Source of the DNA: a virus
Lineage: Duplodnaviria; Heunggongvirae; Uroviricota; Caudoviricetes
Length of the DNA: 64,000 bases
Reading direction: 5' to 3' (one strand)
Virus record (IMG/VR): IMGVR_UViG_3300025693_000001
Shown: positions 9,758-24,824 of the stretch, piece by piece
Numbering within the stretch: the first letter of the stretch is position 1
Layout: every line of letters starts with the position of its first letter
Notes under the pieces: generated by a model
Seen by the model: only the letters and a program-made list of their open reading frames with translations
Databases searched by the model: none
Told to the model about the DNA's origin: nothing
Position numbers and translations under genes: made by a program

Positions 9758-9796
9758 TTGCTGTCCTCTGAATAAGTCGAATGTGGCTGTATTCTT

Positions 9797-10246
9797 CTAT
9801 TTATGGAGGTTCGCGTTGGTAAAATAAGGATTCGGATTTAAGAAAAATTCTTGAAGGAAATAGTCGGTTGTTGCTTTGACTTGAGGCAAGTTGTATTGCA
9901 GACCGGTACCCAGTCGGGCGGTATTAATAATAGTATCGTATACGTCGGGATTCAGTTGATATGATTTGAAGTGCAAATCATTTCCAAACAGCAAGTTATC
10001 GTCCCGAATCGACGTATCAAACGGAACACCAAAATACAACTCCAGTAGATGCGAGTAAATGACAGCAACGGAATACGATTTAGCAGGGTATAGGATTTCG
10101 TGTGTAGCGTTACTAAAATAATCAATCGCGTGTTTAGCTAGTTGATCATCATCCATCTGTTTGACCGGCACATCAATGTTGACATCCGATGGATGTGGGT
10201 TCAAATGGTGGAATAGCTCCTGTCTTATTTTGTGGTCCGATACCAT
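9797..10246 (-). CDS. Hypothetical accessory protein of the radical SAM cluster
   Basis: 149 aa; overlaps the end of the upstream rSAM gene; no recognisable family motif. Confidence 0.75.
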   Translation of the reverse strand: MVSDHKIRQELFHHLNPHPSDVNIDVPVKQMDDDQLAKHAIDYFSNATHEILYPAKSYSVAVIYSHLLELYFGVPFDTSIRDDNLLFGNDLHFKSYQLNPDVYDTIINTARLGTGLQYNLPQVKATTDYFLQEFFLNPNPYFTNANLHK

Positions 10247-11163
10247 TCCAACAACCCCTTGAGTCCACTACACGATTCAACATCAAAGTTTTTAATTGGT
10301 CGCAAATGCTCACTCATGCACCTACCACGAAATTCACAATCACCACAATGTTTATTTGTATTGAATGTTAGATACTCATCCATTACCCACTTGAGGTAAT
10401 CAAACCAATCATACACTGGGAGGAAATACTCGTGGCCATTTCGATCAAATTCTAGTACAGCAAAGTCACCATCCGGTGTCACGTATATATGATCATCAGA
10501 CCAAGCATGACCCTTACCATCCAACACTCGGTTTATGTTCGATTCGGTAACAAATTCATAACCCCGTGACTCGATTGGACTTAATTCTATCCACCTGCGC
10601 ACAAATCCTTCATAATCTTTGAAAGATGTGTCATCGGTATTGGCTTGATTTGTTGAGTATGGTTTTATCTCAACAGATTGCAACTTGGGTAACGTGTTGC
10701 ACACCGATATAGCTTCCATCATTGTTGCATCGTCCCACTCAATCATTCCTTTGCTAGCCAACATAAGCACATGAAATGGTGTATCCAATGCCACCATGTT
10801 ATTCATGACTATGGTGTTTTGTTCACGTTCAGTGTAATCCCAGCTAACCGATAAATCGATATCAGGGCCTGACAACCACGCAGGAACGGTTGTTAGGTTG
10901 GTTATGACAGAAACCTTACCACTATAGTGGTTCCTGATTACATCGATGGTACCTTGTATATATTCACCGTCAAGCAATGTTATTTCACCACCATACAAAT
11001 CGACGTGGGTTATTTTCTTATATTTGGATATTTCTACCAACTTATCGTTCAGCACCGATAAGGGAAGCAACGTGGGGTCTTTTAGTTGGTCCTTGGATAA
11101 ATAACAAAACGAACAACGAAGATTACAACGCAAACAACTATTGATGGACACGGAAAATGACAA
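10225..11163 (-). CDS. Radical SAM protein with C-terminal Cys cluster (rSAM-7)
   Basis: CNLRCSFC, YGGEI, ITN, C-terminal CGDCEFRGRC...C; probable TTG start at 11163 with AGGTG Shine-Dalgarno 7 nt upstream. Confidence 0.88.
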   Translation of the reverse strand: MSFSVSINSCLRCNLRCSFCYLSKDQLKDPTLLPLSVLNDKLVEISKYKKITHVDLYGGEITLLDGEYIQGTIDVIRNHYSGKVSVITNLTTVPAWLSGPDIDLSVSWDYTEREQNTIVMNNMVALDTPFHVLMLASKGMIEWDDATMMEAISVCNTLPKLQSVEIKPYSTNQANTDDTSFKDYEGFVRRWIELSPIESRGYEFVTESNINRVLDGKGHAWSDDHIYVTPDGDFAVLEFDRNGHEYFLPVYDWFDYLKWVMDEYLTFNTNKHCGDCEFRGRCMSEHLRPIKNFDVESCSGLKGLLEWYRTTK

Positions 11164-12044
11164 ACTATTACACCTATAAATTAATTGATCCCAGATCACA
11201 CAAACCCTTTTATGTTGGAAAAGGGAAAGGATCCAGAATGTACGAACATAAAACCAACCACTCAAAAAAACGTCACAAACGGTCAAACCCAATGAAGTGC
11301 AAACGTATTAAAGATATACTGGATGCGGGATATGATATTATATATGAGAAACACGAGATGTTCAACGAGGACGACGCATATGCAATGGAGAAACGGTTAA
11401 TCGAATCACTCGGGAAGATAATAGATGGGACTGGTATCCTTACCAACATCGCTGATGGAGGCTTGGGTGGTAACCCACCAAAAACACCAGTCGATCAATA
11501 CACACTTGGTGGCGACTTAATCGCGACATACTCATCCATCATTGACGCGAGTGAGCGAACAGGGATCAACGGACCAAACATATCATCGAGTATCACAAAC
11601 AGAAACACGAAAAACAAATCAGCCGGTGGATTTGTTTGGACGTACAGAGGGGCAGCATTCGCACCCCCATCACCAAAAACAAACTGCAAAACTGTGTTTC
11701 AATTTGACACCACCGGCTCGATAACAGCGGAATACCACTCATCCGCCCAGGCATCAACAGTGTCGGGTGTTGATCGAGCTGGAATCATTAAGTGTTGTAA
11801 CAGTACCCAACGAACCGCTGGAGGGTGGCGGTGGTCGTATGATGCAGTTGCACCAAAGAACACGAGAAAAAGCGAATCATTAACGAAACGTGTTTGTAGG
11901 CTGTCCCTGTCCGGTGGTATCACGATAGAGTACGAATCACTAAAGGACGCCAGTATAGCGAATAATATTCCAGTTTCTGGCATATCAACATGCTGTCACA
12001 ATCAGACCAAGTCGAGAGGTGGGTTTCGCTGGAAATTTATTTGA
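11157..12044 (+). mobile_element. Free-standing GIY-YIG homing endonuclease with three NUMOD1-like repeats
   Basis: N-terminal YYTYKLIDP...FYVGKG...R...E...N; three repeats of V-x-Q-Y/F...Y-x-S...A...I...AGG(F/W)xW; antisense to the operon. Confidence 0.85.
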
Positions 12045-13113
12045 ATCCTGGTTTGTTGGTTGGAATTTGATTTTTGTTTGTTTCTATGATATCAGAAGCT
12101 AGACTTTTCATCAACGTACAATGATCTTCAACGATGTTTTCATCTTTCATATCTTTGATGGTTTTGCGACAACCGTTGCAGATACTAAACATTGGACACG
12201 CATAACATTCTGTTTTTAATGCGGCGAGTGATAAATCATCATCCAGTGGAGTGGCTGGCGTATCCGAAGACATTTCTTTCTCGAAGTTAATCGGTTTGTC
12301 GCGATCATCACCAAAAGCCCCACAACTATAGAAATCACCACCTGGGTTTATGGCACGGATTCCCCGATCGCAGTTACGCGATTGTGGACAAGTGGTACTA
12401 CCTTCGTACAATCGACGTACCATTTGCTTGGTGTTGTATTCCCAATCAATTAGCCCCTCATTGTATACATCCAGATATATTTTATATATTTTCGATAACT
12501 GATATGATGTCGATAAATCGCCAGAGGCCATACCGTAATTAAGTTTACACTCAACCCCCATCCGTTTTGCTAATCGAACATTATCGATTGCGGTGTCTTC
12601 GTTTTCATCAGTGATAACAGAAATGAAATCCGGTCGGTATCCGATGTGTTCAAGAAATGAATTCGACACATCCCAAAAGTCGTTCTCGGTGAATACTCTA
12701 GTTGGTGTTATCCTACGGGTATCCCCATAATTAAACGACGTGGTAACACCAACGCGTTCATGTTTAAATAACTCGATCCATGGTGTAGGGTTTTTAAGAA
12801 AAGGCCACAGATTCGATGTAAACGATAACGTAGCTGGCATATCATTCGCATCCAAAAACGCAATTATATCCCAGTAGTATTTTGGTTTAATCATCATCGG
12901 ATCACCCCCGTTTATAATGAGGGTGTTCGTTTTTGGGTATTTGCGTAAAAACGTGAAGATGTATTCCAAATCAAGAACACGGAAATGTTGGTCCGATATC
13001 ATAGTTGAACTACAGAATGTACAAGCAAAATTGCAGGCTTCCGTGGGTTTAATGATGAACTCCATTGGAGCATTATGTTCGACTATTTTTATCTGATTAA
13101 GTTTTGTTATCAC
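12037..13113 (-). CDS. Radical SAM/SPASM protein (rSAM-6)
   Basis: CNFACTFC, NGGDP, TSN; SPASM-type TCPQSRNC...GDFYSC...CYACPMFSICNGC...C. Confidence 0.92.
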   Translation of the reverse strand: MITKLNQIKIVEHNAPMEFIIKPTEACNFACTFCSSTMISDQHFRVLDLEYIFTFLRKYPKTNTLIINGGDPMMIKPKYYWDIIAFLDANDMPATLSFTSNLWPFLKNPTPWIELFKHERVGVTTSFNYGDTRRITPTRVFTENDFWDVSNSFLEHIGYRPDFISVITDENEDTAIDNVRLAKRMGVECKLNYGMASGDLSTSYQLSKIYKIYLDVYNEGLIDWEYNTKQMVRRLYEGSTTCPQSRNCDRGIRAINPGGDFYSCGAFGDDRDKPINFEKEMSSDTPATPLDDDLSLAALKTECYACPMFSICNGCRKTIKDMKDENIVEDHCTLMKSLASDIIETNKNQIPTNKPGFK

Positions 13114-14297
13114 AAAATACCTTTACTGTGTGCGAATTCATGGTGTTTTTTGTTCCCTTGAGCTATCTCATCTGCGGTGGTATATCCACCCCAGTCGTAT
13201 ATATCATACGTCAAGTTTCCCATATTCTTCGGGTACATATCAAGGACTTTTTTTGGTAACATACAATCCACGATGTCGTACTGTTTCATATAATATAGCA
13301 CGTGTCTGGATACACACGTATCCAAATAGCGACAATCCTCACACTCGGTGGTACCAGATGCATACGCATATTGGGTTTTTTTCGATTCGGTAGCCATCGC
13401 AATCAAATCATCAACCGTGTATTCACCGTCGTGTGGCACTTTAAAAGCTTCCGTCGTGTTTGCAACATTCTCATGTATGAATGGACTCAGATATACTTCA
13501 CCGTCAGACAAAATCCAATTTGAATAGTTGTGTCCACCATGAGACCAATCTGCCACAACCATTTGAATGTCTAACCGATTGGATGGGGTTACTTGACGCT
13601 CAAGCTCGTTATTCCAGTGCCGGATCATGGTTCTAACTGTTCTGGGTTCATGCGAACGAAAGAACGATGGGTTGTAATCTATGATCGTATTAAACTGGTC
13701 CATAGCCAACAACGACATAGTATGCAACGATATCCCTGTCAATTTTTGGATATTAATCTGCATCGTGTAACAGACTCTTGCAGACATAGCATCGAATAAT
13801 CGTATTTTGTGTTTGAGATCGTCCAGGTAATCTTGGTTGTCGGTATTGAATTTTTTCGGATGCACAACTACCTGAATTTCAAACTCCATATATTCGTGTG
13901 GATAATACTCATTAAACAATTCAATAAAATCTAGAATCGTTTGATCATCACACATTAGTGTGGTCGGGATGGCAAAAATAGGTTTATGCTTGGCCATAAA
14001 TTGCTGGAGTTTTGGTTCCATCAACAACTCTTTTGCATTTACAGCTCCGAAGAAGTCAACCGGCCCAATTACAAGCTCATCGAATAGCATACCCGCGTCA
14101 TTAACCTCTTGGGCCAACTTCTCGAGAAGATCCAAATCTCGTTGTGTGTATGGAGTGTTACCTTTGTTGACGAAGCAACCCCGACAGCTATGCACGCAAG
14201 TGGTCAGAAAATCTGCAGTAGCTCTGTGGGCTACTACAGGTTTTGTTGCTGTCTCTGATGTTTTTTCGTAAAGTAAATTATTTGTTATTATCGGCAC
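13110..14297 (-). CDS. Divergent radical SAM-like protein, paralogue 3 (rSAM-5)
   Basis: CVHSCRGC; GPVDFF instead of GGEP; PSFFR; C-terminal CEDCRYLDTCVSR...DC. Confidence 0.82.
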   Translation of the reverse strand: MPIITNNLLYEKTSETATKPVVAHRATADFLTTCVHSCRGCFVNKGNTPYTQRDLDLLEKLAQEVNDAGMLFDELVIGPVDFFGAVNAKELLMEPKLQQFMAKHKPIFAIPTTLMCDDQTILDFIELFNEYYPHEYMEFEIQVVVHPKKFNTDNQDYLDDLKHKIRLFDAMSARVCYTMQINIQKLTGISLHTMSLLAMDQFNTIIDYNPSFFRSHEPRTVRTMIRHWNNELERQVTPSNRLDIQMVVADWSHGGHNYSNWILSDGEVYLSPFIHENVANTTEAFKVPHDGEYTVDDLIAMATESKKTQYAYASGTTECEDCRYLDTCVSRHVLYYMKQYDIVDCMLPKKVLDMYPKNMGNLTYDIYDWGGYTTADEIAQGNKKHHEFAHSKGIL

Positions 14298-15417
14298 AAC
14301 GTTTTATGCGGGCAGTGGTTGAAGGGGTGGTGCTTGTGTTGTATAAGTCCAGAATTTCTTTTGGATATACACACTCGGTTATGTCTTTTGCTTCCATGAA
14401 ACTCAGCACATTTCTACCAACACACGTTGGTAAGTAGTGACAAGTTGTACACTCATCCGTCTTAGTCACGTACGCAAACTGTTCGGCTATTAGCCTGTGG
14501 TTTGTATCCATCACTTCATCAACGGTTGTTCCAGTTTCCATCGAAGGATAATCGAATAATATCTGTTCATATATAAACGGACTGATGAACATTTTATTTT
14601 TCTTGTAATTAACTACAATCGTATTCATCACATTGTGACTTTGATCAGCTATAGTTAGCATGATATCTTTGTAGTTTGCTTCTGAAATTGTGGCACGTAG
14701 AAACTCTTTCCACACATCCAGGTGAGCTGATATTAACTTATCATTACCCGTACGAAAGAACGATGGTAAGAATTCAATAATAGTATCAAACTGTTCACGA
14801 ACGATTTGAGTTATCTTATCGTAGTGTGTAATCATATCGACGTCATGATGCACGTTTACAGCGAATGACCAATCCACCACTTTTGGTGTTTCATGCTTGA
14901 GATAATGCAGAGCTTTGCTAAAATCTTTGTAGTATTGTTCGTCTCCACTCAACAACAAGTCAACATCCAACGGCACCAACAACTCGATAATCATATCCGA
15001 TCTGTATTTTGATGGGTCATCCAATATAGCAAAAACGGCATCCCATTGTTCTTGGTCGACTTTATGGAACATCGCAGTTGTTGTTATTCTGGTTTTGGGG
15101 TGTATGCTTAACAATTCTTGAAACTTTGGATTGTCAAGAACTTCAACAGCATTCGATGCACTGAATATATCTGTTGGCGAAATGATAACCTCGCGGAACC
15201 GTAGCCCACGTTCGTTCATGTTATGTGCTAGTGTTAATGCAGCATCCAAATCAACATCGTTGATATCGTTGCGTCGGTTTACGAAGCAACCAGGGCAAGC
15301 ATGCGCACAATCACGCAATACTTCAAGATTTAATACAAAATCCATGGTGTGATCGTCCCATCCTGCGGCAACATTGGGGGTGCTTTGTAGTGTAAATAAG
15401 TTTGGTTCAATGCTCAT
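14278..15417 (-). CDS. Divergent radical SAM-like protein, paralogue 2 (rSAM-4)
   Basis: CAHACPGC; SPTDIF; PSFFR; C-terminal CTTCHYLPTCVGR...EC. Confidence 0.82.
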   Translation of the reverse strand: MSIEPNLFTLQSTPNVAAGWDDHTMDFVLNLEVLRDCAHACPGCFVNRRNDINDVDLDAALTLAHNMNERGLRFREVIISPTDIFSASNAVEVLDNPKFQELLSIHPKTRITTTAMFHKVDQEQWDAVFAILDDPSKYRSDMIIELLVPLDVDLLLSGDEQYYKDFSKALHYLKHETPKVVDWSFAVNVHHDVDMITHYDKITQIVREQFDTIIEFLPSFFRTGNDKLISAHLDVWKEFLRATISEANYKDIMLTIADQSHNVMNTIVVNYKKNKMFISPFIYEQILFDYPSMETGTTVDEVMDTNHRLIAEQFAYVTKTDECTTCHYLPTCVGRNVLSFMEAKDITECVYPKEILDLYNTSTTPSTTARIKRCADNNK

Positions 15418-15456
15418 GTGGGTAGATTCTCCTGAAAGCTGTGGTATATGTGCGTG

Positions 15457-15464
15457 TATTTATA
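15457..15464 (-). promoter_or_regulatory. T4-type late promoter inside the rSAM cluster
   Basis: Perfect TATAAATA in the only sizeable intergenic gap of the cluster, 40 nt upstream of ATG 15417. Confidence 0.75.
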
Positions 15465-15503
15465 CTAATAGATCATCTACTATACCCAACCCATCACGAT
15501 AGG

Positions 15504-16622
15504 TCAAATATATTTGGTGCCATCCCATATGTTATCTCTCGGAACGATGCAATCTATTAGATCTCGACTCTCCATGTAAGCTATAACATTACGACCAATA
15601 CAAGACGACAACAGATTACAATGTGCACACCCTGTTGTCTGTGAGGCGTACATATACTGAGATGTGACTAACTCTCCTAGCTTTTTTGTGATATCATCTG
15701 CTGTGTGTGGTTTATCGATCTTGAATATTTCATTTGTTTGAGGTATACCATCAAACAAATACGGCATCACATACAAATCTCCATCCTTGTACGATAGGTT
15801 TATGAAGCCCTCACCACCAAAATATTTATCAAACATATTGAAACTCACGTACTCAGGTAGTGGTTCGTCTGGTGGTAATTGTGCAACTAGCATAGTTTTA
15901 AACGCAGACACCCGACGTTCCACCATGTCAGTTGAATTCGATCGAAAGAAACTTGGTATGATCCGTAATGGCACGTTAAACTCTTCGTGTATCTTTTCTG
16001 CTACCGCAAGTAACGTAGTACCATTAAACATCTGGTCGTGATAATTAACCACAAACACCACGGTATCCTTTGCAAATAAGCACAAATGTTCGGTAAGTTT
16101 ATCGATGTATTCCCGATCGTTACTCAGGTATTTCGCCAGATCAAACGCAACAAACAACTCAAAGTCTCGAGCTGCTGCATTGTTCAAATGTTTTTGCAGG
16201 GTGTGCCATCTCATCTTTAGCGTTCTGGTATCGCACATCAGGGTGGAGCTAGCACTAAGGGAGAAATTTGATGTAAGTTCATACATCAGAGGATTGTCCA
16301 TTATCTCGTCGAAATTCGTTGCTGTGAAAATATCCGTTGGTCCGATGAATACTTCTTCGCACGCCACAGACATACTTTGAAGCGTATCAGCGATTGCAAT
16401 GGCTGACGATATGTCGTCTGGAGTACATGTGTTCCGTCTGGGTATGTAACACCCAACACAATTGAAAGCGCATCCATCTAGTATGTCCAATACCAGTTCG
16501 GACCGTAGCATATCCGTGTATTGTAGTTTTGCGGGATTGTGTGGTCCGATCGTTGCGGATCCGATATCACCAATATTGACACCATCTGATAGTGTTTCTT
16601 TTTGGTAGGTGTTCATTTTCAT
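15504..16622 (-). CDS. Divergent radical SAM-like protein, paralogue 1 (rSAM-3)
   Basis: CAFNCVGC; GPTDIF; PSFFR; C-terminal CAHCNLLSSCIGR...DC. Confidence 0.82.
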   Translation of the reverse strand: MKMNTYQKETLSDGVNIGDIGSATIGPHNPAKLQYTDMLRSELVLDILDGCAFNCVGCYIPRRNTCTPDDISSAIAIADTLQSMSVACEEVFIGPTDIFTATNFDEIMDNPLMYELTSNFSLSASSTLMCDTRTLKMRWHTLQKHLNNAAARDFELFVAFDLAKYLSNDREYIDKLTEHLCLFAKDTVVFVVNYHDQMFNGTTLLAVAEKIHEEFNVPLRIIPSFFRSNSTDMVERRVSAFKTMLVAQLPPDEPLPEYVSFNMFDKYFGGEGFINLSYKDGDLYVMPYLFDGIPQTNEIFKIDKPHTADDITKKLGELVTSQYMYASQTTGCAHCNLLSSCIGRNVIAYMESRDLIDCIVPRDNIWDGTKYI

Positions 16623-17734
16623 TGGGTGGTACGTATCCCCTTTGTTGTGTAGTCAAAAAATGCACGCATGGTGCAATCACTCATGTTTCTATCTCTAATT
16701 TTCCAATCATGCTGGGTAAAACATCTAAATCCACACCGCTTGAAGTATTCACACGATAAGCAACCATGCTCATCCATAAAGTTCTGCATCATCCCAGCAT
16801 TATCGGCTTTATTGTAAGTGGTAACAAAATCGGATTGATCATATCGGTTCCATCTACAATTCGATGTTGAACCATCCGGAAATATTGTTATTTTGTTTAA
16901 CGACAAACAATGCATCTGGTTTTCGGTATTCTCGATCAGTTCTCGTATTGGTGATATCAGTGGGTAGTTATCCGCCACAAAAGTATACCAATCATATATC
17001 ATCCGATCGGATGGAATCTCATCACTAAAACCTTTATCCGGAATGTAGTCATCGAAGTACACCGGAAATGTTGCGTATAGCCACTTGAAATACTCATCAC
17101 CATCTTGCATAAAATTGGTGATGGACGATACCGTACCGACACAATTGATAGACAAGATGTATTCTGGTCCAAAAAACTTCACATTGTCTCGGTATCGATT
17201 CGACATAGGACGTCCATCAAAATCGTATGATGCAATCAGATGGGTGTCAATGTTTAATGATCGCATCCGATCGATAAGTGACTTTACCAGCTCGATTTTT
17301 TTAAACAGAAAATTACTAACCCACACGACTTTCATTGTGTGTCCATACAAATCGAATATGGGTTTCAGTTTCTGCATCAATCGCCAATATGCGTCAATTA
17401 ACTGCTCCATTTGTTGATCTTGGAATAATTCACCACCAACCACATTGATCTGCATATAGTCGACGGTATTCTGTTTCTCTTTCAGAAATTGTTCTATTGT
17501 TGGTATCTTATCAAACATATCCTCGTCCGACATACCAACAATAGAATCTTTATCATGGTGACAAAAATCACACACGATGTTGCAGTTTTCGAACAACGTT
17601 AGTTCGATTTCTCCATTAACGGGACGTTTCGTCTCTAATATTTGCTTGGTTGTATCGGATGGGACTGATGGTGTAATTCCAATTGCCGTAATATCAGCAA
17701 TTGGAATTATGGGGATAGTCTTATACTGCGTCAT
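16619..17734 (-). CDS. Radical SAM/SPASM protein (rSAM-2)
   Basis: CNIVCDFC, VGGEL, VSN; HC...PDGSTSNC...CLSCEYFKRCGFRC...C. Confidence 0.9.
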   Translation of the reverse strand: MTQYKTIPIIPIADITAIGITPSVPSDTTKQILETKRPVNGEIELTLFENCNIVCDFCHHDKDSIVGMSDEDMFDKIPTIEQFLKEKQNTVDYMQINVVGGELFQDQQMEQLIDAYWRLMQKLKPIFDLYGHTMKVVWVSNFLFKKIELVKSLIDRMRSLNIDTHLIASYDFDGRPMSNRYRDNVKFFGPEYILSINCVGTVSSITNFMQDGDEYFKWLYATFPVYFDDYIPDKGFSDEIPSDRMIYDWYTFVADNYPLISPIRELIENTENQMHCLSLNKITIFPDGSTSNCRWNRYDQSDFVTTYNKADNAGMMQNFMDEHGCLSCEYFKRCGFRCFTQHDWKIRDRNMSDCTMRAFFDYTTKGIRTTQ

Positions 17735-18494
17735 CTGGTATTGGTAGCATTGCCTGCATATCGATCATCAGTTGTTTAATCTTATCGCCCGCCACTGTAT
17801 CACCGGCGTCCATTTCAGCGGCAAGAGTTATTAACCCAGCGTAAGCGCTTTTGTCGTTGAACACGTACGAGAATATATTACCACCGTTGAACATATATTC
17901 ATCAAAATACCGCGTGTAGTATATTTGATCGGATAATGGAATGTTTGTGCATAAGTAAGCCATCAGAAAATCTTTAATAGTAAACAACTTAACAACGGAG
18001 TATCCGATCTCATCAAATTGTTCATCAGTGACAGTAGTAATTAATGTATCATGCAGTGGTCCAAATTCTTCTCCCTCACCGGCACCTAGCTTGGTTAACA
18101 TGTACAGGGGGATGGAATTAACAAATGCCATCTGTGGTATCAACAAAGAGTGATGCTGTGTTGCAAAGTCGATACACTCATCGATGGACCACAAGTGGGG
18201 ATGATCAGTATAAAACATGTCGCCATGCTTGGCTAATCCTAAAATATTCGCATGTGTAATCTTTAAGTTTTGCACTTCTGAAAATTCCTTAAGCCGCATG
18301 TACTCATCCATGAGTTCGTGCGTGATCACGTCAATGTTGCAATTCAGCCCCAAATTAGCAATGTACATTAATAGAAATTTCGGATTTGATAGATTTGCAA
18401 GTGATGCATGATAATCTATCAAATATGCCTGGTTTTTATCCTTAAAGAATTCCACCATATCGGTGGGTGTTAATGGTAATACTATTTTTTCCAC
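17721..18494 (-). CDS. Hypothetical accessory protein of the radical SAM cluster
   Basis: 257 aa, GTG start, overlaps rSAM-2 start; appears helical; no catalytic motif recognised. Confidence 0.75.
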   Translation of the reverse strand: MEKIVLPLTPTDMVEFFKDKNQAYLIDYHASLANLSNPKFLLMYIANLGLNCNIDVITHELMDEYMRLKEFSEVQNLKITHANILGLAKHGDMFYTDHPHLWSIDECIDFATQHHSLLIPQMAFVNSIPLYMLTKLGAGEGEEFGPLHDTLITTVTDEQFDEIGYSVVKLFTIKDFLMAYLCTNIPLSDQIYYTRYFDEYMFNGGNIFSYVFNDKSAYAGLITLAAEMDAGDTVAGDKIKQLMIDMQAMLPIPDDAV

Positions 18495-18510
18495 TTATGG
18501 TACCTTCGTG

Positions 18511-19725
18511 TTATTGTGTTCTTCGTTTCTTCGGTTCACTCCAAAGACTTGGAATGGTCGTAGATGCAAACTGAGAGTATGATTTAACTGAATCGATATT
18601 AGCCATCATTGCTTTTTTTGTTTTGAATTTATCAGACGTAACGATTATTTCATCGTTATCATCGACCAGTTCCCACATCCATTTATCAGCTATGTGTTTG
18701 GTTACAAACGTACCGGCAGTTTCTTCACCAGTCGGATACAATGTAGTCAATAATAATGTGTTAAATTTCTGTCCCGCTCCACTTATAAAATCGTGCTGAG
18801 AGAATGGTATAATGTTATTGATGACCAAGTCAACGTCACTCGTCTCAAACAAACGGTAGAATAAATCGTGTTCATACAAATGTCGTGGGTGTTCCTCGGG
18901 ATAATCAATATCATTCGTCACGCACAATCTAGTCCAATCTTTGATCCGTTCCAACAACACAGGGTCATTGAAGTCCAGACTCTTTGGGTTAAAGAACAAA
19001 GCTCGTAGTAGTGCATTGTTTTCGATGGCAGCGATGGCCTCACCGATGGAATCCAAAGAATCAGCACCCAAGAATGTAGCCAAGACCTTGCGATCAATAG
19101 CCATGTCGTTCCTGATATTGAGAGTGACCGCATGCACCAGACCTCGCAACATGGGTGTAGCAATTGCTGACACTTTTGTGTCGGCTATTGATTTTTCTAT
19201 GTATCCATTTTTGTACAGATACAATACATACTCCAATGGTAGGTCTTGTGGGTTATCCACCAAACCACCAACTGCCGTATACAAACCTGGTTTCAGCAAT
19301 CGGTATGCATCACCGATATCGTATGTAACAGGTCGCCCAACGAAGTAATTTTTTAACTGTTGAATGCTTAACAATTCCGTCATGTGCTCTTCAGATATTG
19401 CATACCGTACTTGCAGCTCTATCAACATCATGGCAAACAATCGAGCATAGTCATCATCACGCGATACGACTATCCATAATTTGGTTTCTGTGCTTAACCA
19501 ATTATAAAAATCGGTATCACTTCCATTGAATTCCAACGCTATCATTTCCAGATAGCTGTTGAACTGCATCACCACCCCTTTTGCGTTGGGGTTATTTGCA
19601 TCCGCTCTAATCATTTCATCAATAGGTGTATCACTCGGTGTTAACACCACTGTGCGGTGTTCACCTGATAGAACGTGAACATCCTCGGGATATGTCACAT
19701 AAATGCTGTTTCGTATATTGAACAT
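18511..19725 (-). CDS. Accessory protein with C-terminal DUF1508/YegP-like domain
   Basis: ATG 19725 overlaps the upstream stop (TAATG); C-terminal GTF...KWMWELVDDNDEIIVTSDKFKTKKAMMANIDSVK resembles the DUF1508 pattern. Confidence 0.65.
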   Translation of the reverse strand: MFNIRNSIYVTYPEDVHVLSGEHRTVVLTPSDTPIDEMIRADANNPNAKGVVMQFNSYLEMIALEFNGSDTDFYNWLSTETKLWIVVSRDDDYARLFAMMLIELQVRYAISEEHMTELLSIQQLKNYFVGRPVTYDIGDAYRLLKPGLYTAVGGLVDNPQDLPLEYVLYLYKNGYIEKSIADTKVSAIATPMLRGLVHAVTLNIRNDMAIDRKVLATFLGADSLDSIGEAIAAIENNALLRALFFNPKSLDFNDPVLLERIKDWTRLCVTNDIDYPEEHPRHLYEHDLFYRLFETSDVDLVINNIIPFSQHDFISGAGQKFNTLLLTTLYPTGEETAGTFVTKHIADKWMWELVDDNDEIIVTSDKFKTKKAMMANIDSVKSYSQFASTTIPSLWSEPKKRRTQ

Positions 19726-20309
19726 TAGCGTCTTCCTCTTGCGCTGTGGCACACACTATGGCAACTGCTGTGGCAATAGCTAATTGTGGCATCTGTTTTG
19801 TTTGAATTTGTGGTAATAACGCCACGCAATGATGCTATTACAGCCTCATAATTTGAGCGATCGATGGAATCTGCATTCCCAATGTTGTCATATGCTCCGC
19901 CTGGTGCACCATCACTAGCCGTTAACACGCCTGGACTGGTTTTATATGCGGTCCGAGTGTAATCTGCTTTCACACCCGAAGTATTTCCATTGCCCCATGA
20001 TGATCGTCTGCGGTGGAATGTAAATATTCGCGTCTTACTGTACAAACTCAGAAACGAATTTAGCGTTGCTACCAAATTACCACTACCAACGCTACTCGTC
20101 AACGATGATGTAGCGATGTTTGTTGGTATTGACACTCCCAGTGATACACCAGTAGCAGCTGCTCGCGATACATCAGTGCTATTTGCAATAGCAGGTGATC
20201 CAGGGGTTAATTCAGTAGTCGCTTGTTGACGTAGTGTTGTAACACCACCCACAGCTGATGTTGAGCTTATCAACCCACCCCATATTGTTTTTGTTATTTC
20301 ATTTGCCAT
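19725..20309 (-). CDS. Putative rSAM substrate / precursor with C-terminal (CHSx)3 motif
   Basis: 194 aa, S/T/G/A-rich; its only three Cys are in YCHSSCHSVCHSARGRR; directly downstream of rSAM-1. Confidence 0.7.
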   Translation of the reverse strand: MANEITKTIWGGLISSTSAVGGVTTLRQQATTELTPGSPAIANSTDVSRAAATGVSLGVSIPTNIATSSLTSSVGSGNLVATLNSFLSLYSKTRIFTFHRRRSSWGNGNTSGVKADYTRTAYKTSPGVLTASDGAPGGAYDNIGNADSIDRSNYEAVIASLRGVITTNSNKTDATISYCHSSCHSVCHSARGRR

Positions 20310-20321
20310 GTTGCAATCCTT

Positions 20322-21401
20322 TTATTCCTGTCCCATAAACCCACCTAGTATTGTTTTATACAGGGGTATATCGTTATCGTTTTTCATTTTGGTCATCATG
20401 GTTTTTGGTGCAGCACACACGTTACCTTGCCAAGCCAATTGGTGACAATCACCATTACACACGTCATATACCGGACAAATAGAACAAGCTGGATGTCTAA
20501 TTATCTCAGCGGATATGTTACACATTCTACCTTCGCTAGTCATCAGAGCCTCGACGTCGTCGTGGATCGTACCAAATGTGTTGTCTACGGCTGAGTTTGG
20601 GCAGCCTCCGATTGATCCATTTGCGTTGATGGTTAGTATCTTTTGTTCACACTCTCGGCACCGACACCCTGCATGTGCATTGTGTACTAAACTCGTTAAT
20701 ATTGAATCGAAAAACATGTTATCGATAAATTCCCAAGTCTTGTGTTCCAGTGTTTGTTCCCACAACTTCAAAAACCACATATCTAGCGCTTCATTCGACG
20801 GCATTATACCCTGTTCAATGAATTGCAATGCGTTACCATTTGGGGTTACTCGCTCGAAGTTAATGTGGTTAATACCAAGGCTAGCCATATCACGTATAAT
20901 GTCAATTGGCTCCATGTGATTTACAACATCACCAGACAGGCAAACCATTACCGTGATATCATACCCATCGTCAGTTAGCTGTTTCACATTATCTCGCCAC
21001 AGCTGTTCTTGTTTCGGTTTTGGCCATCGGATATTCTTGTCCCAAGAGGTACCAAACGATTTCCCACATATTTCATCAAACACGCGAATTTTATCCGGTG
21101 TCAGTGGATAGGTCAGGTTCGTTTGCACTGACCACCATATGTTTGGCCATAAGTCCTTTACCCCATTCCAAACATCGAATAGTTTTTCGGTGGGAGCGAG
21201 CATCGGCTCACCACCATGGAACGATATGTTACCATGGTCATAGTTCGGGTTGTATTCGTGCAAGCGTTTGAAGAATGCTACAGTTGCGTCAACATCGAAC
21301 CACCCCTTTCGCCCATTGTGACCATTAGTAAAGCAGTGGTCACAATGCAGGTTGCAGGTATCGGTGGTTTTTAAGTAACACATGAAATCGTTAGTTGCCA
21401 T
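20322..21401 (-). CDS. Radical SAM/SPASM protein (rSAM-1), peptide-maturase-like
   Basis: CNLHCDHC, SFHGGEP, QTN; CRCREC...GSIGGC...CSICPVYDVCNGDC...C. Confidence 0.93.
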   Translation of the reverse strand: MATNDFMCYLKTTDTCNLHCDHCFTNGHNGRKGWFDVDATVAFFKRLHEYNPNYDHGNISFHGGEPMLAPTEKLFDVWNGVKDLWPNIWWSVQTNLTYPLTPDKIRVFDEICGKSFGTSWDKNIRWPKPKQEQLWRDNVKQLTDDGYDITVMVCLSGDVVNHMEPIDIIRDMASLGINHINFERVTPNGNALQFIEQGIMPSNEALDMWFLKLWEQTLEHKTWEFIDNMFFDSILTSLVHNAHAGCRCRECEQKILTINANGSIGGCPNSAVDNTFGTIHDDVEALMTSEGRMCNISAEIIRHPACSICPVYDVCNGDCHQLAWQGNVCAAPKTMMTKMKNDNDIPLYKTILGGFMGQE

Positions 21402-21417: not shown

Positions 21418-22584
21418 TTATGCAGAATACAGAGCTGGCCACACTTGGACCCATCCTGTTCCCGCTAAGTACATTTGTATTGTTGCTCCAACCGCTTGAG
21501 TATCCCCTGTTTGAGCGGGTTGCCCTTTGCCGGTCGGATTGTATTGCATAAAATCACCAGCAGCAACTTTATCATCTACATAACCCTTCGTCGATGCTTC
21601 ATACGTTGATACTGGGTGTCTACCTAATGTTAGCGTTGCTGATCCATTCATAGAATCACCAGCTCGACTGATCTTATCGTTCAGTTGCGTTTGAACATTA
21701 CTGGTCAACCCAACGTTAAAATTTGTTTCACTTGCCGTTAGTGTTGGTAGATCCAACGCATCCAAGTAAGCGTTCTGCAACGATGTTAGATGAACAATTT
21801 CGTCGGATAAATGGGTTCCCATATCCCCAACAAAGTCGTCAAACGCTTTTTTGTGCATTGCATCATATGGATCAACAGGATCACCCAAATTGATAATTCG
21901 GTGTCTCGCTGTAACTCCAGCATCATCCCCACCCATATCCAATTCACCACTCATCCAATCACCACACTGTCGTAGAAAACTTTCTCCGACTAACACGAAA
22001 CCATCAGGAGCCGCTTCAGTGTGGTTTGGGTTGTATATCTTCAATAGTGGTTCAGTGATACAACCATTTGTATCTCCAGCGATACTGGTATCATACCACA
22101 AATCCCCAACTGTTGGGTTTGCGGGTTGTGCGGTGTTAACATATATACCAGATGTTACCTTCCATAATGGTACAGGTGGGTTATTTTCAACCCCCAGATC
22201 ATCCAATATGTCTGCGTCATACACGTATAACAACCGACTAGTAACATTATACCACAATTGCCCGTCGAGGGGAACTGTTATCCCATTTCCTGGTCCCAAA
22301 TCATTCGCATCTTTGGGTAGAATGGGGCTTGTTGTTGGGTCATAATCATATGACCCAGTAGATGGATTGTAATCACCTGCTTGTTTTTCAGGGCAGTTGA
22401 AATTCTCTGCCAACCTATAGACGTTCTCGTCCATTCCCTCACCCCACTGTAATGCTCCCATGCCGTATAACCGCATGTCACTGTCGTGGTGTGTACTTCC
22501 AGGGCCATTCAATGCTCCTGGTTTTATAGTAAGACTTTTTGAAGAAGCTCCATCTGTACTATCGATAACATAAACTGTTGCCAT
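21418..22584 (-). CDS. Tail fibre-like protein
   Basis: Shared N-terminal LYGMGALQWGE...EN..RLAENF domain; GQLWY/GDLWY repeats; EASTKGYVD; CATAAATA at 22616-22623. Confidence 0.72.
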   Translation of the reverse strand: MATVYVIDSTDGASSKSLTIKPGALNGPGSTHHDSDMRLYGMGALQWGEGMDENVYRLAENFNCPEKQAGDYNPSTGSYDYDPTTSPILPKDANDLGPGNGITVPLDGQLWYNVTSRLLYVYDADILDDLGVENNPPVPLWKVTSGIYVNTAQPANPTVGDLWYDTSIAGDTNGCITEPLLKIYNPNHTEAAPDGFVLVGESFLRQCGDWMSGELDMGGDDAGVTARHRIINLGDPVDPYDAMHKKAFDDFVGDMGTHLSDEIVHLTSLQNAYLDALDLPTLTASETNFNVGLTSNVQTQLNDKISRAGDSMNGSATLTLGRHPVSTYEASTKGYVDDKVAAGDFMQYNPTGKGQPAQTGDTQAVGATIQMYLAGTGWVQVWPALYSA

Positions 22585-22618: not shown

Positions 22619-23197
22619 TTATGCGGTTATAGAATCCAACAAATTACCAAAGTCGGAAATAGCTGTTTTTATTTCCGTGCTTGTTGCTGACGCATTAATA
22701 GCGACTTGTGTTTGTAACCGATATTGTTCCACTAAAACATTATACCCCAACGTGGCATTATACTCAGCTATAATATCATCAGCAGCAGCTGTTGCTGTTT
22801 TTGATAATGCTATAACATCCCCCGCTATGAATGGGTATGGTGTTGTATCAACAGGATATCCAGCGGCTTTATATGCTAGAGCTTGTGTATTCTTTTCCAA
22901 ATATACCAAATTCTGAATAGCATGTTGAGTGATTTGTTGCGTGCGATGTTGTTCTGCAGATGCATTGATACTCGATATTGCTAGTACCTTATCTGCCGCC
23001 AGTGTGTAGTTGGGATCATCTATTTCCACCCACGGTCCAACACCATTCGTGTACGTAACTAACTTACCCTTACCAACGGATATTGGTTTTTCGATTGTGT
23101 ATCCTGCTATACCAGTTTTATTAGTAGCAGATCGTGATACTCCAACGTACGTGTAATCGGTTGTGTCGAATTTATAAAATGTGTATATAGTGATCAT
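22619..23197 (-). CDS. Putative tail fibre assembly/chaperone protein (start MITIY at 23197)
   Basis: ATGA overlap with upstream fibre gene; position and helical C-terminal half typical of fibre assembly proteins. Confidence 0.55.
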   Translation of the reverse strand: MITIYTFYKFDTTDYTYVGVSRSATNKTGIAGYTIEKPISVGKGKLVTYTNGVGPWVEIDDPNYTLAADKVLAISSINASAEQHRTQQITQHAIQNLVYLEKNTQALAYKAAGYPVDTTPYPFIAGDVIALSKTATAAADDIIAEYNATLGYNVLVEQYRLQTQVAINASATSTEIKTAISDFGNLLDSITA

Positions 23198-24789
23198 GAG
23201 AATATCTGTACCTCTAACGTGGATTCTATGTTTGGATCTGCAACAGGATTGTAATCCTGTGTGGTGTTCAATCTCGTATTCTGACCGGCGTTGAGTGATG
23301 AATTGCGTGCCATAACACGGAACGTATATGTTGTGTTTTGTTGAAGCGTTCCTGACGCCATTGGGCATATGCTGTACGTGAGTGAGCTTGCATCGTTTCC
23401 CTCTGATGATTTTGTGTCAATCACCGTGAGTGACGCGTATTCTCCACCAATCACACCCAACTCCCAATACGTCGGATTGTATGATTTACGGTGATGCACA
23501 TTCAACGCGCTCTTGACAACGAAAGTTACCGGTGCGCTTGTAACCACCACATCAACATCGAAGTTGGGAATGATAGTGCTCGTCGATGCAACAACATCAT
23601 AATATGATGCGTATGCTATGGTTTGAAGATCAATTAACCTACCATCACTCGGTTGTCCTGTTAATTGGTTATCGACGTACTGTTTAGTTGCAGCTTCTAA
23701 CGGAATTATGGGATCGTGGGCAAGTAATACACCCCCACCCGACATTTGAATATTTCCGGTCGAGGTGGTTGTTCCGGCTAGACGCACGCTTTTAAAAAAC
23801 CAAGCATCTTCACCAATCCGTAACATAGGTGTCCCGAATGGATGGATCGTCATGACATTCTTAACACCACCACCACCGTAATTGGTTGTGAAAGCTAACT
23901 CCCCAGCATTGGTGTATTCAATCTGGATATTACCACCTTTGGTGTATGAGCTACCAGCATCGAATATAACAGATTTGGCTGTACTAGACACATCGAATGA
24001 CAGGTTACCTGTCATGGTATCCCCAGATAACGCGACATACGCACCACCACCGCCACCACTGGCTACAGAATCAACGTATTGTTTTGTGGCAGCATGTAGC
24101 GCGTTTGTGGGGTTAGCATTCAGTGTCAAATATCCCGACATAATGTCACCAACTTTTGCCACAGCATTGCTACCGATGGTGTCCGCATATTGTTTTGTAG
24201 CGGCGTGTAAAGCATTTACGGGGTCGGCGTTTAGGGTTAAGTACCCCGACATGATGTCACCACTCAAGCTAACGTATCCGCTACCGGATGAAGAGGCCAA
24301 AGCCACCCACACACTACCATTGTAAAAATTGATCAGATTTGTTGAGCCGTCATACCACAGATCACCCAACAATGGGGTAGTTGGTTTCGTTGTGCTAGAT
24401 GAAGCGGTGTTCCGCCAATACCCAACAACAGGATCCGCGTTTGGATCGATGGGAGCATAGATGTATAGTTTGCCATCCGTTTTGTTGAACCACAATTGCC
24501 CTAGGACGGGACTGTTGATACCCAGACCAGCAGTTTCAGTTGTGTTTCGTGGAGTTGGGGATGTTGTGTCAAGTGGGTCGAAAGTTGCATTTTGATCCAC
24601 TGCAAAGTTTTCCAACAAACGATAGAAATTTTCGTTGAATCGTTCACCCCAACTAGGCGTTGCATTGCCGTATAGTGTTAGGTCAGTATTTGATTGCACC
24701 CCACCAGTCCCATCGAACGTACGGGGTTGGATAGCAAAGGTGGTTCCACCATCGGTGCTATCTATTAAATAAATTGTTGTATTAGCCAT
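23194..24789 (-). CDS. Tail fibre protein (start MANTT at 24789)
   Basis: Shared N-terminal domain; tandem GDIMSGYLTLNA(D/N)PxNALHAATKQY(A/V)D repeats; TATAAATA at 24825-24832. Confidence 0.78.
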   Translation of the reverse strand: MANTTIYLIDSTDGGTTFAIQPRTFDGTGGVQSNTDLTLYGNATPSWGERFNENFYRLLENFAVDQNATFDPLDTTSPTPRNTTETAGLGINSPVLGQLWFNKTDGKLYIYAPIDPNADPVVGYWRNTASSSTTKPTTPLLGDLWYDGSTNLINFYNGSVWVALASSSGSGYVSLSGDIMSGYLTLNADPVNALHAATKQYADTIGSNAVAKVGDIMSGYLTLNANPTNALHAATKQYVDSVASGGGGGAYVALSGDTMTGNLSFDVSSTAKSVIFDAGSSYTKGGNIQIEYTNAGELAFTTNYGGGGVKNVMTIHPFGTPMLRIGEDAWFFKSVRLAGTTTSTGNIQMSGGGVLLAHDPIIPLEAATKQYVDNQLTGQPSDGRLIDLQTIAYASYYDVVASTSTIIPNFDVDVVVTSAPVTFVVKSALNVHHRKSYNPTYWELGVIGGEYASLTVIDTKSSEGNDASSLTYSICPMASGTLQQNTTYTFRVMARNSSLNAGQNTRLNTTQDYNPVADPNIESTLEVQIFS

Positions 24790-24824
24790 AGGATTCGTAT
24801 TCCTCAAAGTATTACGATATCCCG

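Follow-up and report, generated by a model that had tools for sequence, protein, structure and literature searches.

We analyzed a 64,000-nucleotide (nt) stretch of DNA from a Caudoviricetes virus (IMG/VR record IMGVR_UViG_3300025693_000001), referred to here as the window. A minus-strand gene at positions 19725 to 20309, with an ATG start codon and a TAA stop codon (19725 to 19727), encodes a 194-amino-acid protein that we named the CHS protein (Cys-His-tailed). The protein consists of an alpha/beta body (residues 1 to 178) and a 16-residue tail, which comprises a core of three C-aromatic-x-small units, C-H-S-S, C-H-S-V, and C-H-S-A (residues 179 to 190; minus strand, 19740 to 19775), followed by R-G-R-R with a free C terminus (residues 191 to 194; minus strand, 19728 to 19739). 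The codon for C179 occupies 19775 to 19773, and that for R194 occupies 19730 to 19728. All three Cys residues and three of the four His residues of the protein lie in the tail; under random placement, the probability of such clustering is ~5e-4 for Cys and ~2e-3 for His. An earlier note on this DNA had claimed that Cys and His are concentrated in the last 16 residues and that the protein ends in RGRR, and the open reading frame (ORF) does read CHSS-CHSV-CHSA-RGRR; the span given there for the tail, 19725 to 19778, covers it and also takes in Y178 and the stop codon. The gene belongs to a co-oriented block (9797 to 21401), the cassette, that contains the CHS gene, the radical S-adenosylmethionine (SAM) gene rSAM1, six further genes encoding a CxxxCxxC motif, and three accessory genes. 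The rSAM1 stop codon lies 12 nt ahead of the CHS start, and the CHS stop codon and the start codon (ATG) of the gene that follows share bases as TAATG. This arrangement makes the CHS protein a candidate substrate of the neighboring enzymes.

The body of the CHS protein is rich in Ser, Thr, Gly, and Ala (49% of residues 1 to 178, compared with 33 to 39% in three neighboring fiber proteins and 22 to 23% in neighboring enzymes), in keeping with the likeness to nearby virion proteins that had been claimed for it. AlphaFold2 (AF2), supplied with the family alignment described below, predicted the body to be a compact alpha/beta fold (mean predicted local distance difference test score [pLDDT], 86.5; predicted template modeling score [pTM], 0.83), and this confident model supports the earlier view of a protein-sized scaffold rather than a short leader. 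The tail emerges from the last beta-strand (residues 172 to 179) at a pLDDT of 55 to 58, and the helix drawn at residues 184 to 191 likewise reaches only 55 to 58. Because the tail follows the last strand of a confident fold and is itself modeled with low confidence, it is plausibly exposed. The protein had no match among Pfam, NCBIfam, PHROG, or PADLOC models, and a protein-atlas feature search gave no usable match. Foldseek comparison of the body with the PDB returned nothing at an E value of ≤0.001, and among the 48,161 chains compared by VIA-align, the best Z score was 4.2, with no convincing relative. A search of the BFVD viral models with the body retrieved only members of the CHS family itself, including the proteins of phages Atu_ph07 and pPa_SNUABM_DT01. 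The lack of fold relatives in these searches is no proof that the CHS fold is new.

To place the protein in a family, a word-based search was combined with a profile search. The former found nine relatives with 55 to 79% identity, all of which had the same tail. The CHS profile was run against 1.84 billion cluster representatives and matched 126 clusters at an E value of ≤0.001; together with homologues from named phages, the profile matches gave 134 usable members. The exact C-terminal pattern (C-H-x-x)3-R-x-R-R was present in 122 of these 134 members, an RR terminus in 131, and at least two Cys-aromatic units within the last 30 residues in all 134. We aligned 111 full-length members, picked for the canonical tail that those 122 share, and in this selected set the only invariant columns were C179, H180, C183, H184, C187, H188, R191, R193, and R194; G192 was conserved in >90% of the sequences. 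Mean column identity across the same alignment was 9%. The invariant C terminus on a variable body that the earlier note had proposed is therefore seen among homologues, with all nine invariant columns in the tail. Judged from these sequences, tail conservation is far beyond chance. Body length varies from ~125 to 364 residues, usually without any further Cys (median, 0), and the extra sequence of the longer members (257 to 364 amino acids) matched no Pfam domain. Across the family, the residues ahead of the first Cys alternate between hydrophobic and polar in a strand-like manner.

Homologues in named phages were reached solely through searches with rSAM1; megablast, tblastn with the whole CHS protein, and tblastn with a 32-residue tail fragment all returned no match in the phage database. 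In the three phages whose genomes we opened, the gene directly after rSAM1 encodes a CHS homologue: gp170 of Atu_ph07 (296 amino acids), ORF068 of RSL2 (186 amino acids), and PA10_00065 of pPa_SNUABM_DT01 (178 amino acids). These three proteins carry the same tail and are otherwise unrecognizable.

The variants of the tail were informative about its repeating unit. The position after Cys-aromatic-x is Ser in 73%, Asn in 17%, and Ala in 6% of units across the family (Ser, Asn, or Ala in 96%); the triads that begin with His in the window are H-S-S, H-S-V, and H-S-A. Three divergent members carry Tyr in place of His and retain Tyr-Ala-Asn or Tyr-Asn-Ser, and one member has an additional His-Gly-Ser that lacks Cys. 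Since His-to-Tyr variants occur, if rarely, and the x positions are constrained, the unit is better read as C-aromatic-x-[Ser/Asn]. A lineage related to the window (contig L101; L089 is a second contig with this variant) has a degenerate tail with C-H-S-N, C-Y-A-N, no third unit, and an R-V-R-R end. Decay of the enzymes alongside this tail was considered and rejected: JGI gene calls in L101 (14572 to 15558 and 15564 to 16472) clip the N termini of rSAM6 and rSAM7, including their CxxxCxxC motifs, and in-frame TTG and ATG starts restore both. Start codons assigned by gene calling in contigs of this kind are no safe sign that a gene has decayed.

The rSAM1 gene (minus strand, 20322 to 21401) encodes a radical SAM/SPASM protein that scores just above the cutoffs for PF04055 (31.1 bits; cutoff, 29.5) and the SPASM model TIGR04085 (27.1 bits; cutoff, 27). 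In 49 orthologues, the radical SAM triad of C16, C20, and C23 is invariant, as are eight further Cys residues that would suffice for two auxiliary clusters. To examine how regularly rSAM1 and the CHS gene travel together, we used 80 IMG/VR loci fetched with the family alignment, of which 74 had enough upstream sequence to measure spacing. At 61 of these, the end of rSAM1 falls somewhere from 26 nt within the CHS gene to 29 nt ahead of its start; the exceptions are of three kinds, namely, loci with an inserted gene, loci with a rearranged cassette, and six loci with tandem short CHS genes. This close and frequently overlapping placement at 61 of 74 viral loci, together with the conserved cassette, supports the earlier claim of a link between the CHS protein and radical SAM enzymes. 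A structure prediction of the rSAM1-CHS complex, made with our own alignments, with three 4Fe-4S clusters and SAM included and with no controls, scored 0.31 against a mark of 0.32, a result that weighs neither way on binding.

Across the 80 loci, the cassette has a recurring order: a JmjC-like cupin gene, rSAM1, the CHS gene, acc257, rSAM2, zero to five genes of the rSAM3-5 type, rSAM6, rSAM7, acc149, and often a 2-oxoglutarate (2OG)-Fe(II) oxygenase gene, with four to eight radical SAM genes in all. Atu_ph07, RSL2, and pPa_SNUABM_DT01 share this order. The remaining cassette genes of the window, all on the minus strand, can be placed in it. The gene that overlaps the CHS stop (18511 to 19725) is translationally coupled to the CHS gene and encodes a 404-amino-acid accessory protein with a C-terminal DUF1508 (YegP-like) module (PF07411, 1.5e-8; ~18560 to 18720); at the corresponding position, RSL2 (ORF069), L089, and L101 have proteins with only weak similarity to it. 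It is followed by acc257 (phrog_20767; 17721 to 18494), a nearly universal gene that lies downstream of the CHS gene in 66 loci; AF2 modeled its product at a pLDDT of 84, and fold searches (Foldseek against the PDB and VIA-align) found no match among solved structures. rSAM2 (16619 to 17734) encodes CxxxCxxC, belongs to phrog_1802, is the BLAST orthologue of RSL2 ORF072 and Atu_ph07 gp168, and, like rSAM6 and rSAM7, is a universal cassette member. rSAM3, rSAM4, and rSAM5 (13110 to 16622) are tandem paralogues with 25 to 31% mutual identity, vary from 0 to 5 copies per cassette, and have almost no NCBIfam or Pfam matches; RSL2 ORF071 is of the same type. rSAM6 (12037 to 13113) is a SPASM enzyme 52% identical to RSL2 ORF075. 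rSAM7 (10225 to 11292) has an uncertain start codon, and acc149 (phrog_20737; 9797 to 10246) is the usual last gene of the cassette.

Putative mobile elements were also seen within cassettes. In the window, a plus-strand ORF of 295 amino acids (11157 to 12044) lies between rSAM6 and rSAM7, overlaps the ends of both genes, and has an N terminus resembling that of GIY-YIG homing endonucleases (Y-x-Y...Y-V-G-K-G). In the degenerate-tail lineage, DUF7487-type genes, which resemble mobile endonucleases, are inserted beside the CHS gene in L089 (822 to 2720 and 1 to 216) and L101. Selfish elements seem to insert into the cassette often.

The cassette is carried by T4-like, phiKZ-like, and Rak2-like giant phages and by a Bdellovibrionaceae chromosome, and it usually adjoins fiber genes. 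In the window, it is flanked on the minus strand by tail-fiber-type genes directly upstream (21418 to 22584; phrog_15511 and tail fiber PHROGs) and directly downstream (7448 to 9757; tail fiber PHROGs 2710 and 11393), and an N-terminal module is common to the fiber paralogues at 21418 to 22584, 23194 to 24807, and 7448 to 9757. L101, which is related to the T4-like window, has a T4-type portal. The cassette follows baseplate, spike, and virion structural genes in RSL2 (phiKZ-like) and pPa_SNUABM_DT01 and a giant structural protein in the Rak2-like phage Atu_ph07. Directly ahead of the cassette, 8 of 10 diverse IMG/VR loci have a gene that matched a tail fiber or virion structural PHROG, and a tandem-CHS cassette (L048) is preceded by a gene for a fiber-like protein of 2,846 amino acids. 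The upstream fiber-type proteins of L007, L013, L022, L052, L075, and L048 differ greatly in length and share a C-terminal domain of ~110 residues (phrog_22593/19602) with the motif T-A-T-S-A-x-Y-A-D-L-A-E-x-Y ... A-L-K-G-R-V-P-V. This domain could be the docking partner of the CHS protein. We also considered the upstream fiber genes as alternative Cys/His substrates; since the common C-terminal domain at these other loci has no conserved Cys or His, they are not obvious candidates. In L017, the gene directly upstream of the cassette (4718 to 6292) is tryptophan halogenase-like (phrog_2928, 1.7e-144).

For Atu_ph07, mass spectrometry of virions assigned most detected proteins to three clusters, coding sequences 31 to 76, 170 to 215, and 284 to 329 (PMC6102473). 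The numbering in that study equals the RefSeq gp numbering (portal, 198; major capsid protein, 215), and the second virion cluster therefore begins exactly at the CHS homologue gp170.

Outside phages, when prokaryotes were scanned with one genome for each species, the CHS family turned up in five contigs, four of them from Bdellovibrio-type metagenome-assembled genomes (MAGs), and 10 of 151 sampled Bdellovibrionaceae genomes carried it. A Bdellovibrionaceae copy (G097 contig 4) has the full cassette and is judged to be chromosomal because it lies on a 299-kb contig flanked by genes for PilQ, PilM, carbamoyl-phosphate synthase, aspartate carbamoyltransferase, and signal peptidase. The rSAM1 proteins of two Bdellovibrio-type MAGs are 60% identical to that of the window; among phage orthologues, only that of L028 is closer (68%). 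Two neighboring genes were seen in this setting: a putative B12-binding radical SAM gene (575-amino-acid product) just upstream of the chromosomal CHS gene (L099, 17653 to 19380; weak match to the B12-binding domain, 25.1 bits; cutoff, 32.1) and a nearby gene for a 348-amino-acid protein with a Peptidase_S74 fiber chaperone domain and a weak prepilin-type N-terminal methylation motif (L100, 8196 to 9242).

Comparison with curated families placed the enzymes only broadly. Among named phages, rSAM1 is 47% identical to its counterparts in Agrobacterium phage Atu_ph07 and Sinorhizobium phage Phosso and 37 to 40% identical to those of Ralstonia phages RSL2 and RSF1, Burkholderia phages FLC6, FLC8, and S13, and Pseudomonas phage pPa_SNUABM_DT01. 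Its best NCBIfam match was the anaerobic sulfatase-maturating enzyme (anSME) family TIGR03942, over the full length of the protein (52.8 bits, 3.2e-14; cutoff, 349.45), and the solved anSME 4K36 aligns with residues 13 to 319; rSAM1 is anSME-like in length and layout and has no N-terminal recognition domain. Other weak matches were to DynA, DarE, PapB, YhhB, and ScmF, all of which are peptide or protein maturases and none of which came near its cutoff. Scores against cyclophane synthase families covered only the N-terminal core (bits/cutoff: YhhB, 39/445; FxsB, 28/370; GrrM/OscB, 21/310; AmcB, 20/425), and those against thioether-forming and related families were similarly low (PapB, 34.4/340; SCIFF, 23.4/425; StsB, 20.4/625; QhpD, 24/453). 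rSAM6 scored 23.1 bits against HxsC (TIGR03977; cutoff, 267.9) and rSAM7 scored 13.6 bits against HxsB (TIGR03978; cutoff, 370), in both cases over the generic N-terminal core only, and neither HxsB nor HxsC was among the 25 best families shown for rSAM1. PADLOC gave only generic viperin-core matches for the cassette enzymes. As far as homology goes, rSAM1, rSAM6, and rSAM7 appear to be peptide- or protein-modifying SPASM enzymes and nothing more specific.

From the conserved tail, the folded body, and the gene order, we infer, with a probability of roughly 0.6, that the CHS protein is a dedicated, protein-sized substrate of the surrounding radical SAM/SPASM enzymes. A compact, fast-evolving alpha/beta body would present the flexible 16-residue C-terminal tail, and docking of the tail in register is probably the role of the invariant R-G-R-R and its free carboxylate. 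The 5′-deoxyadenosyl radicals of the enzymes would then build covalent cross-links in the three C-aromatic-x-Ser/Asn units. Any specific chemistry is doubtful; our first choice would be His cyclophanes, whether or not Cys thioethers accompany them, and our second would be formylglycine at the last Cys. The likeliest links would be three-residue cyclophanes that join a ring carbon of His to the beta-carbon of the Ser or Asn two residues on; thioethers from the three Cys residues may be added, or the Cys residues may bind a metal after cross-linking. Maturation would leave the protein with a small and rigid knob that might bind metal, and the protein would act together with the fiber apparatus, in the virion for phages and on the cell for Bdellovibrio-type predators.

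Several observations weigh against this proposal. The degenerate-tail lineage keeps rSAM1, rSAM2, rSAM4, rSAM6, and rSAM7 intact; the number of units therefore does not predict the number of enzymes, and a picture of one enzyme per unit is modestly weakened. Six loci (L048, L060, L067, L073, L078, and L080) have two tandem CHS genes, which encode proteins of 126 to 138 amino acids with the same tail (at ~9650 to 10500 in loci with full flanks and 3577 to 4361 in L078) and are followed by four to five paralogues of the rSAM3-5 type, and no rSAM1 lies within 10 kb of them. The window itself lacks the cupin and 2OG oxygenase genes common to most cassettes. Because no enzyme reaches a curated family cutoff, the chemistry cannot be read from homology. 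The start of the second Atu_ph07 virion cluster at gp170 is an indirect hint of a virion location and is suggestive only. Neither the present analysis nor our literature search found direct evidence of tail modification. Finally, Cys and His are also classic metal ligands, and their invariance would also be accounted for by a metal or Fe-S site without any modification.

Under that last explanation, the CHS protein would either serve the Fe-S enzymes of the cassette, by donating clusters, carrying electrons, or assisting assembly, or be a structural protein with a metal tip, and the radical SAM enzymes would act on something else, for example, fiber proteins or a small molecule. Three Cys and three His residues with regular CX3CX3C spacing are a typical ligand set, each of the four to eight cassette enzymes needs one to three [4Fe-4S] clusters, and the enzyme content is unreduced when the tail degenerates; moreover, phage fiber and spike tips often hold Fe or Zn via His or Cys. 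A simple ligand set would not, however, be expected to tolerate His-to-Tyr swaps or to prefer Ser or Asn at position four of the unit, and the reading of the unit as C-aromatic-x-[Ser/Asn] favors His cyclophanes over plain metal binding. One would expect the body of a redox partner or cluster donor to be conserved, whereas that of the CHS protein is almost free to vary. Strict placement at the extreme C terminus with R-G-R-R is left unexplained by metal binding, and the overlapping arrangement with rSAM1 is typical of enzyme-substrate pairs. On balance, we consider an unmodified metal site unlikely.

Two other explanations retain the CHS protein as a substrate and change what is made of it. 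If rSAM1 were an anSME-like enzyme, one or more of the tail Cys residues might be oxidized to formylglycine, whose aldehydes would fasten the CHS protein covalently to a partner, for example, a fiber or a host surface. The size of rSAM1, its full-length best match to anSME, its alignment with 4K36, and its lack of a leader recognition domain are all compatible with this, as is the action of anSME on whole-protein substrates; C-H-[G/S]-[S/A]-R, the last unit, even has the Cys-x-x-x-Arg spacing of the sulfatase motif C/S-x-P/A-x-R. Yet the score is far under the family cutoff (52.8 versus 349 bits), the Pro/Ala position of the motif is mostly Gly or Ser (Gly, Ser, or Thr in most members and Ala in only 8 of 122), and an Arg at +4 follows only the last of the three Cys residues. 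Formylglycine would also leave the invariant His residues and the other three to seven radical SAM enzymes without explanation, and we think this route quite improbable. Alternatively, the body could be an oversized leader from which the modified C-terminal 16 residues, or part of them, are cut off as a diffusible product or cofactor, as for pyrroloquinoline quinone, mycofactocin, and the long-leader NHLP/Nif11 peptides. The core does sit at the extreme C terminus, the cassette holds many tailoring enzymes, and protein-sized leaders are known in the biology of peptides that are ribosomally synthesized and then modified posttranslationally. Against a leader stand the lack of any conserved protease or exporter gene in the cassette and the alternating beta-strand pattern found ahead of the core where a conserved cleavage motif would be expected; the body is instead a confident independent domain that varies like a surface or recognition protein, and the Atu_ph07 homologue marks the start of a cluster of virion protein genes. 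A released product is, in our estimation, very improbable.

Most known cases of radical SAM maturation concern short peptides, along with a few enzymes, and to our knowledge, no phage structural protein is built in this manner. Until now, annotation of the cassette has gone no further than isolated "radical SAM" or "Fe-S oxidoreductase" genes in RSL2/RSF1, Atu_ph07, Burkholderia phages FLC6 and S13, pPa_SNUABM_DT01, and many metagenomic phages. Our literature search turned up no study of what the cassette does and none that connects the radical SAM genes of these phages with a substrate. Tying its enzymes to one 16-residue target makes the question directly testable, and the tail is probably cross-linked by a pathway that nobody has described; the chemistry may include new His/Cys cross-links. 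More tentatively, giant phages and Bdellovibrio-type predators might share an enzyme-built polycyclic Cys/His knob, possibly metal binding or covalently reactive, on a fast-evolving surface protein of the fiber apparatus that is needed for contact with or entry into prey. Such a protein would be the first case of radical SAM maturation in a virion and would mirror, on the side of attack, the host's defensive effector in the HXS antiphage system, discussed below. If its product does sit on the fiber apparatus of phages and predatory bacteria, the cassette would reveal a shared and unrecognized requirement of cell attack and would offer a compact, enzyme-installed tag for protein engineering.

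In the HXS system, the effector HxsA, of ~200 amino acids with His-Xaa-Ser repeats, is matured by the radical SAM enzymes HxsB and HxsC together with HxsD, and a +8-Da change was mapped to S-H-R-S-S (PMC13128918). The CHS cassette resembles it in pairing a whole protein of ~200 amino acids that has tandem His-x-Ser units and basic flanks with co-encoded radical SAM/SPASM enzymes, which in HXS are needed for maturation; read as C-[H-x-S], the phage tail holds the same triad three times, with H-x-[S/N/A] three times across the CHS family. The CHS units differ in having an invariant Cys before His, in numbering exactly three, and in lying at the extreme C terminus before R-G-R-R. The peptidoglycan-binding domain of HxsA is unmatched in the CHS protein (no Pfam or NCBIfam match), the N terminus of the CHS protein does not look like a signal peptide when judged by eye, and NCBIfam and Pfam searches found no HxsD homologue among the accessory proteins of the cassette. 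The CHS enzymes score far under the HxsB and HxsC cutoffs, and their carriers are phages or predators rather than defense islands.

Triceptides offer a likeness at the level of the unit. In these peptides, SPASM enzymes link a carbon of the aromatic ring with the beta-carbon of X3, and links at His C2 have been proven for HtkB (H-T-K) and HaaB (H-A-A) (PMC11499958). The tandem aromatic1-X2-X3 motif, the acceptance of His, and the SPASM-type maturases (XyeB, GrrM, FxsB, HaaB, and HtkB) are all shared features, and the His-to-Tyr swaps of the CHS family keep the triad. Triceptide precursors, however, are short peptides with leaders, whereas the corresponding "leader" of the CHS protein is a folded domain of ~180 amino acids, and they have one radical SAM gene compared with four to eight in the CHS cassette. 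Matches of rSAM1 to YhhB, FxsB, GrrM, and AmcB cover the generic N-terminal radical SAM core and lie far under the cutoffs. The invariant Cys has no counterpart in triceptides or in HXS.

The sulfatases and their anSME partners recall the CHS pair in the size of rSAM1, its SPASM layout without a leader recognition domain, the full-size protein substrate, and the Cys-x-x-x-Arg spacing of the last unit; unlike them, the CHS motif lacks Pro/Ala and has three Cys residues with adjacent His, and the protein has no sulfatase fold. Ranthipeptides and sactipeptides (PapA/PapB freyrasin with Cys-x3-Asp; SCIFF/ScfB) share the four-residue Cys period in a C-terminal core, where SPASM enzymes form thioethers, and QhpC, the partner of QhpD, is likewise a small protein subunit and not a peptide. 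The CHS unit differs from these in having no Asp or Glu acceptor and an invariant His, and its enzymes score far under the respective family cutoffs. By these scores and motifs, the cassette falls outside HxsA-D, the curated cyclophane synthases, anSME, PapB, SCIFF, and QhpD. The logic of its motif is closest to that of triceptides, and HXS, a precedent for radical SAM maturation of a whole protein at His-x-Ser repeats, is the closest described analogue.

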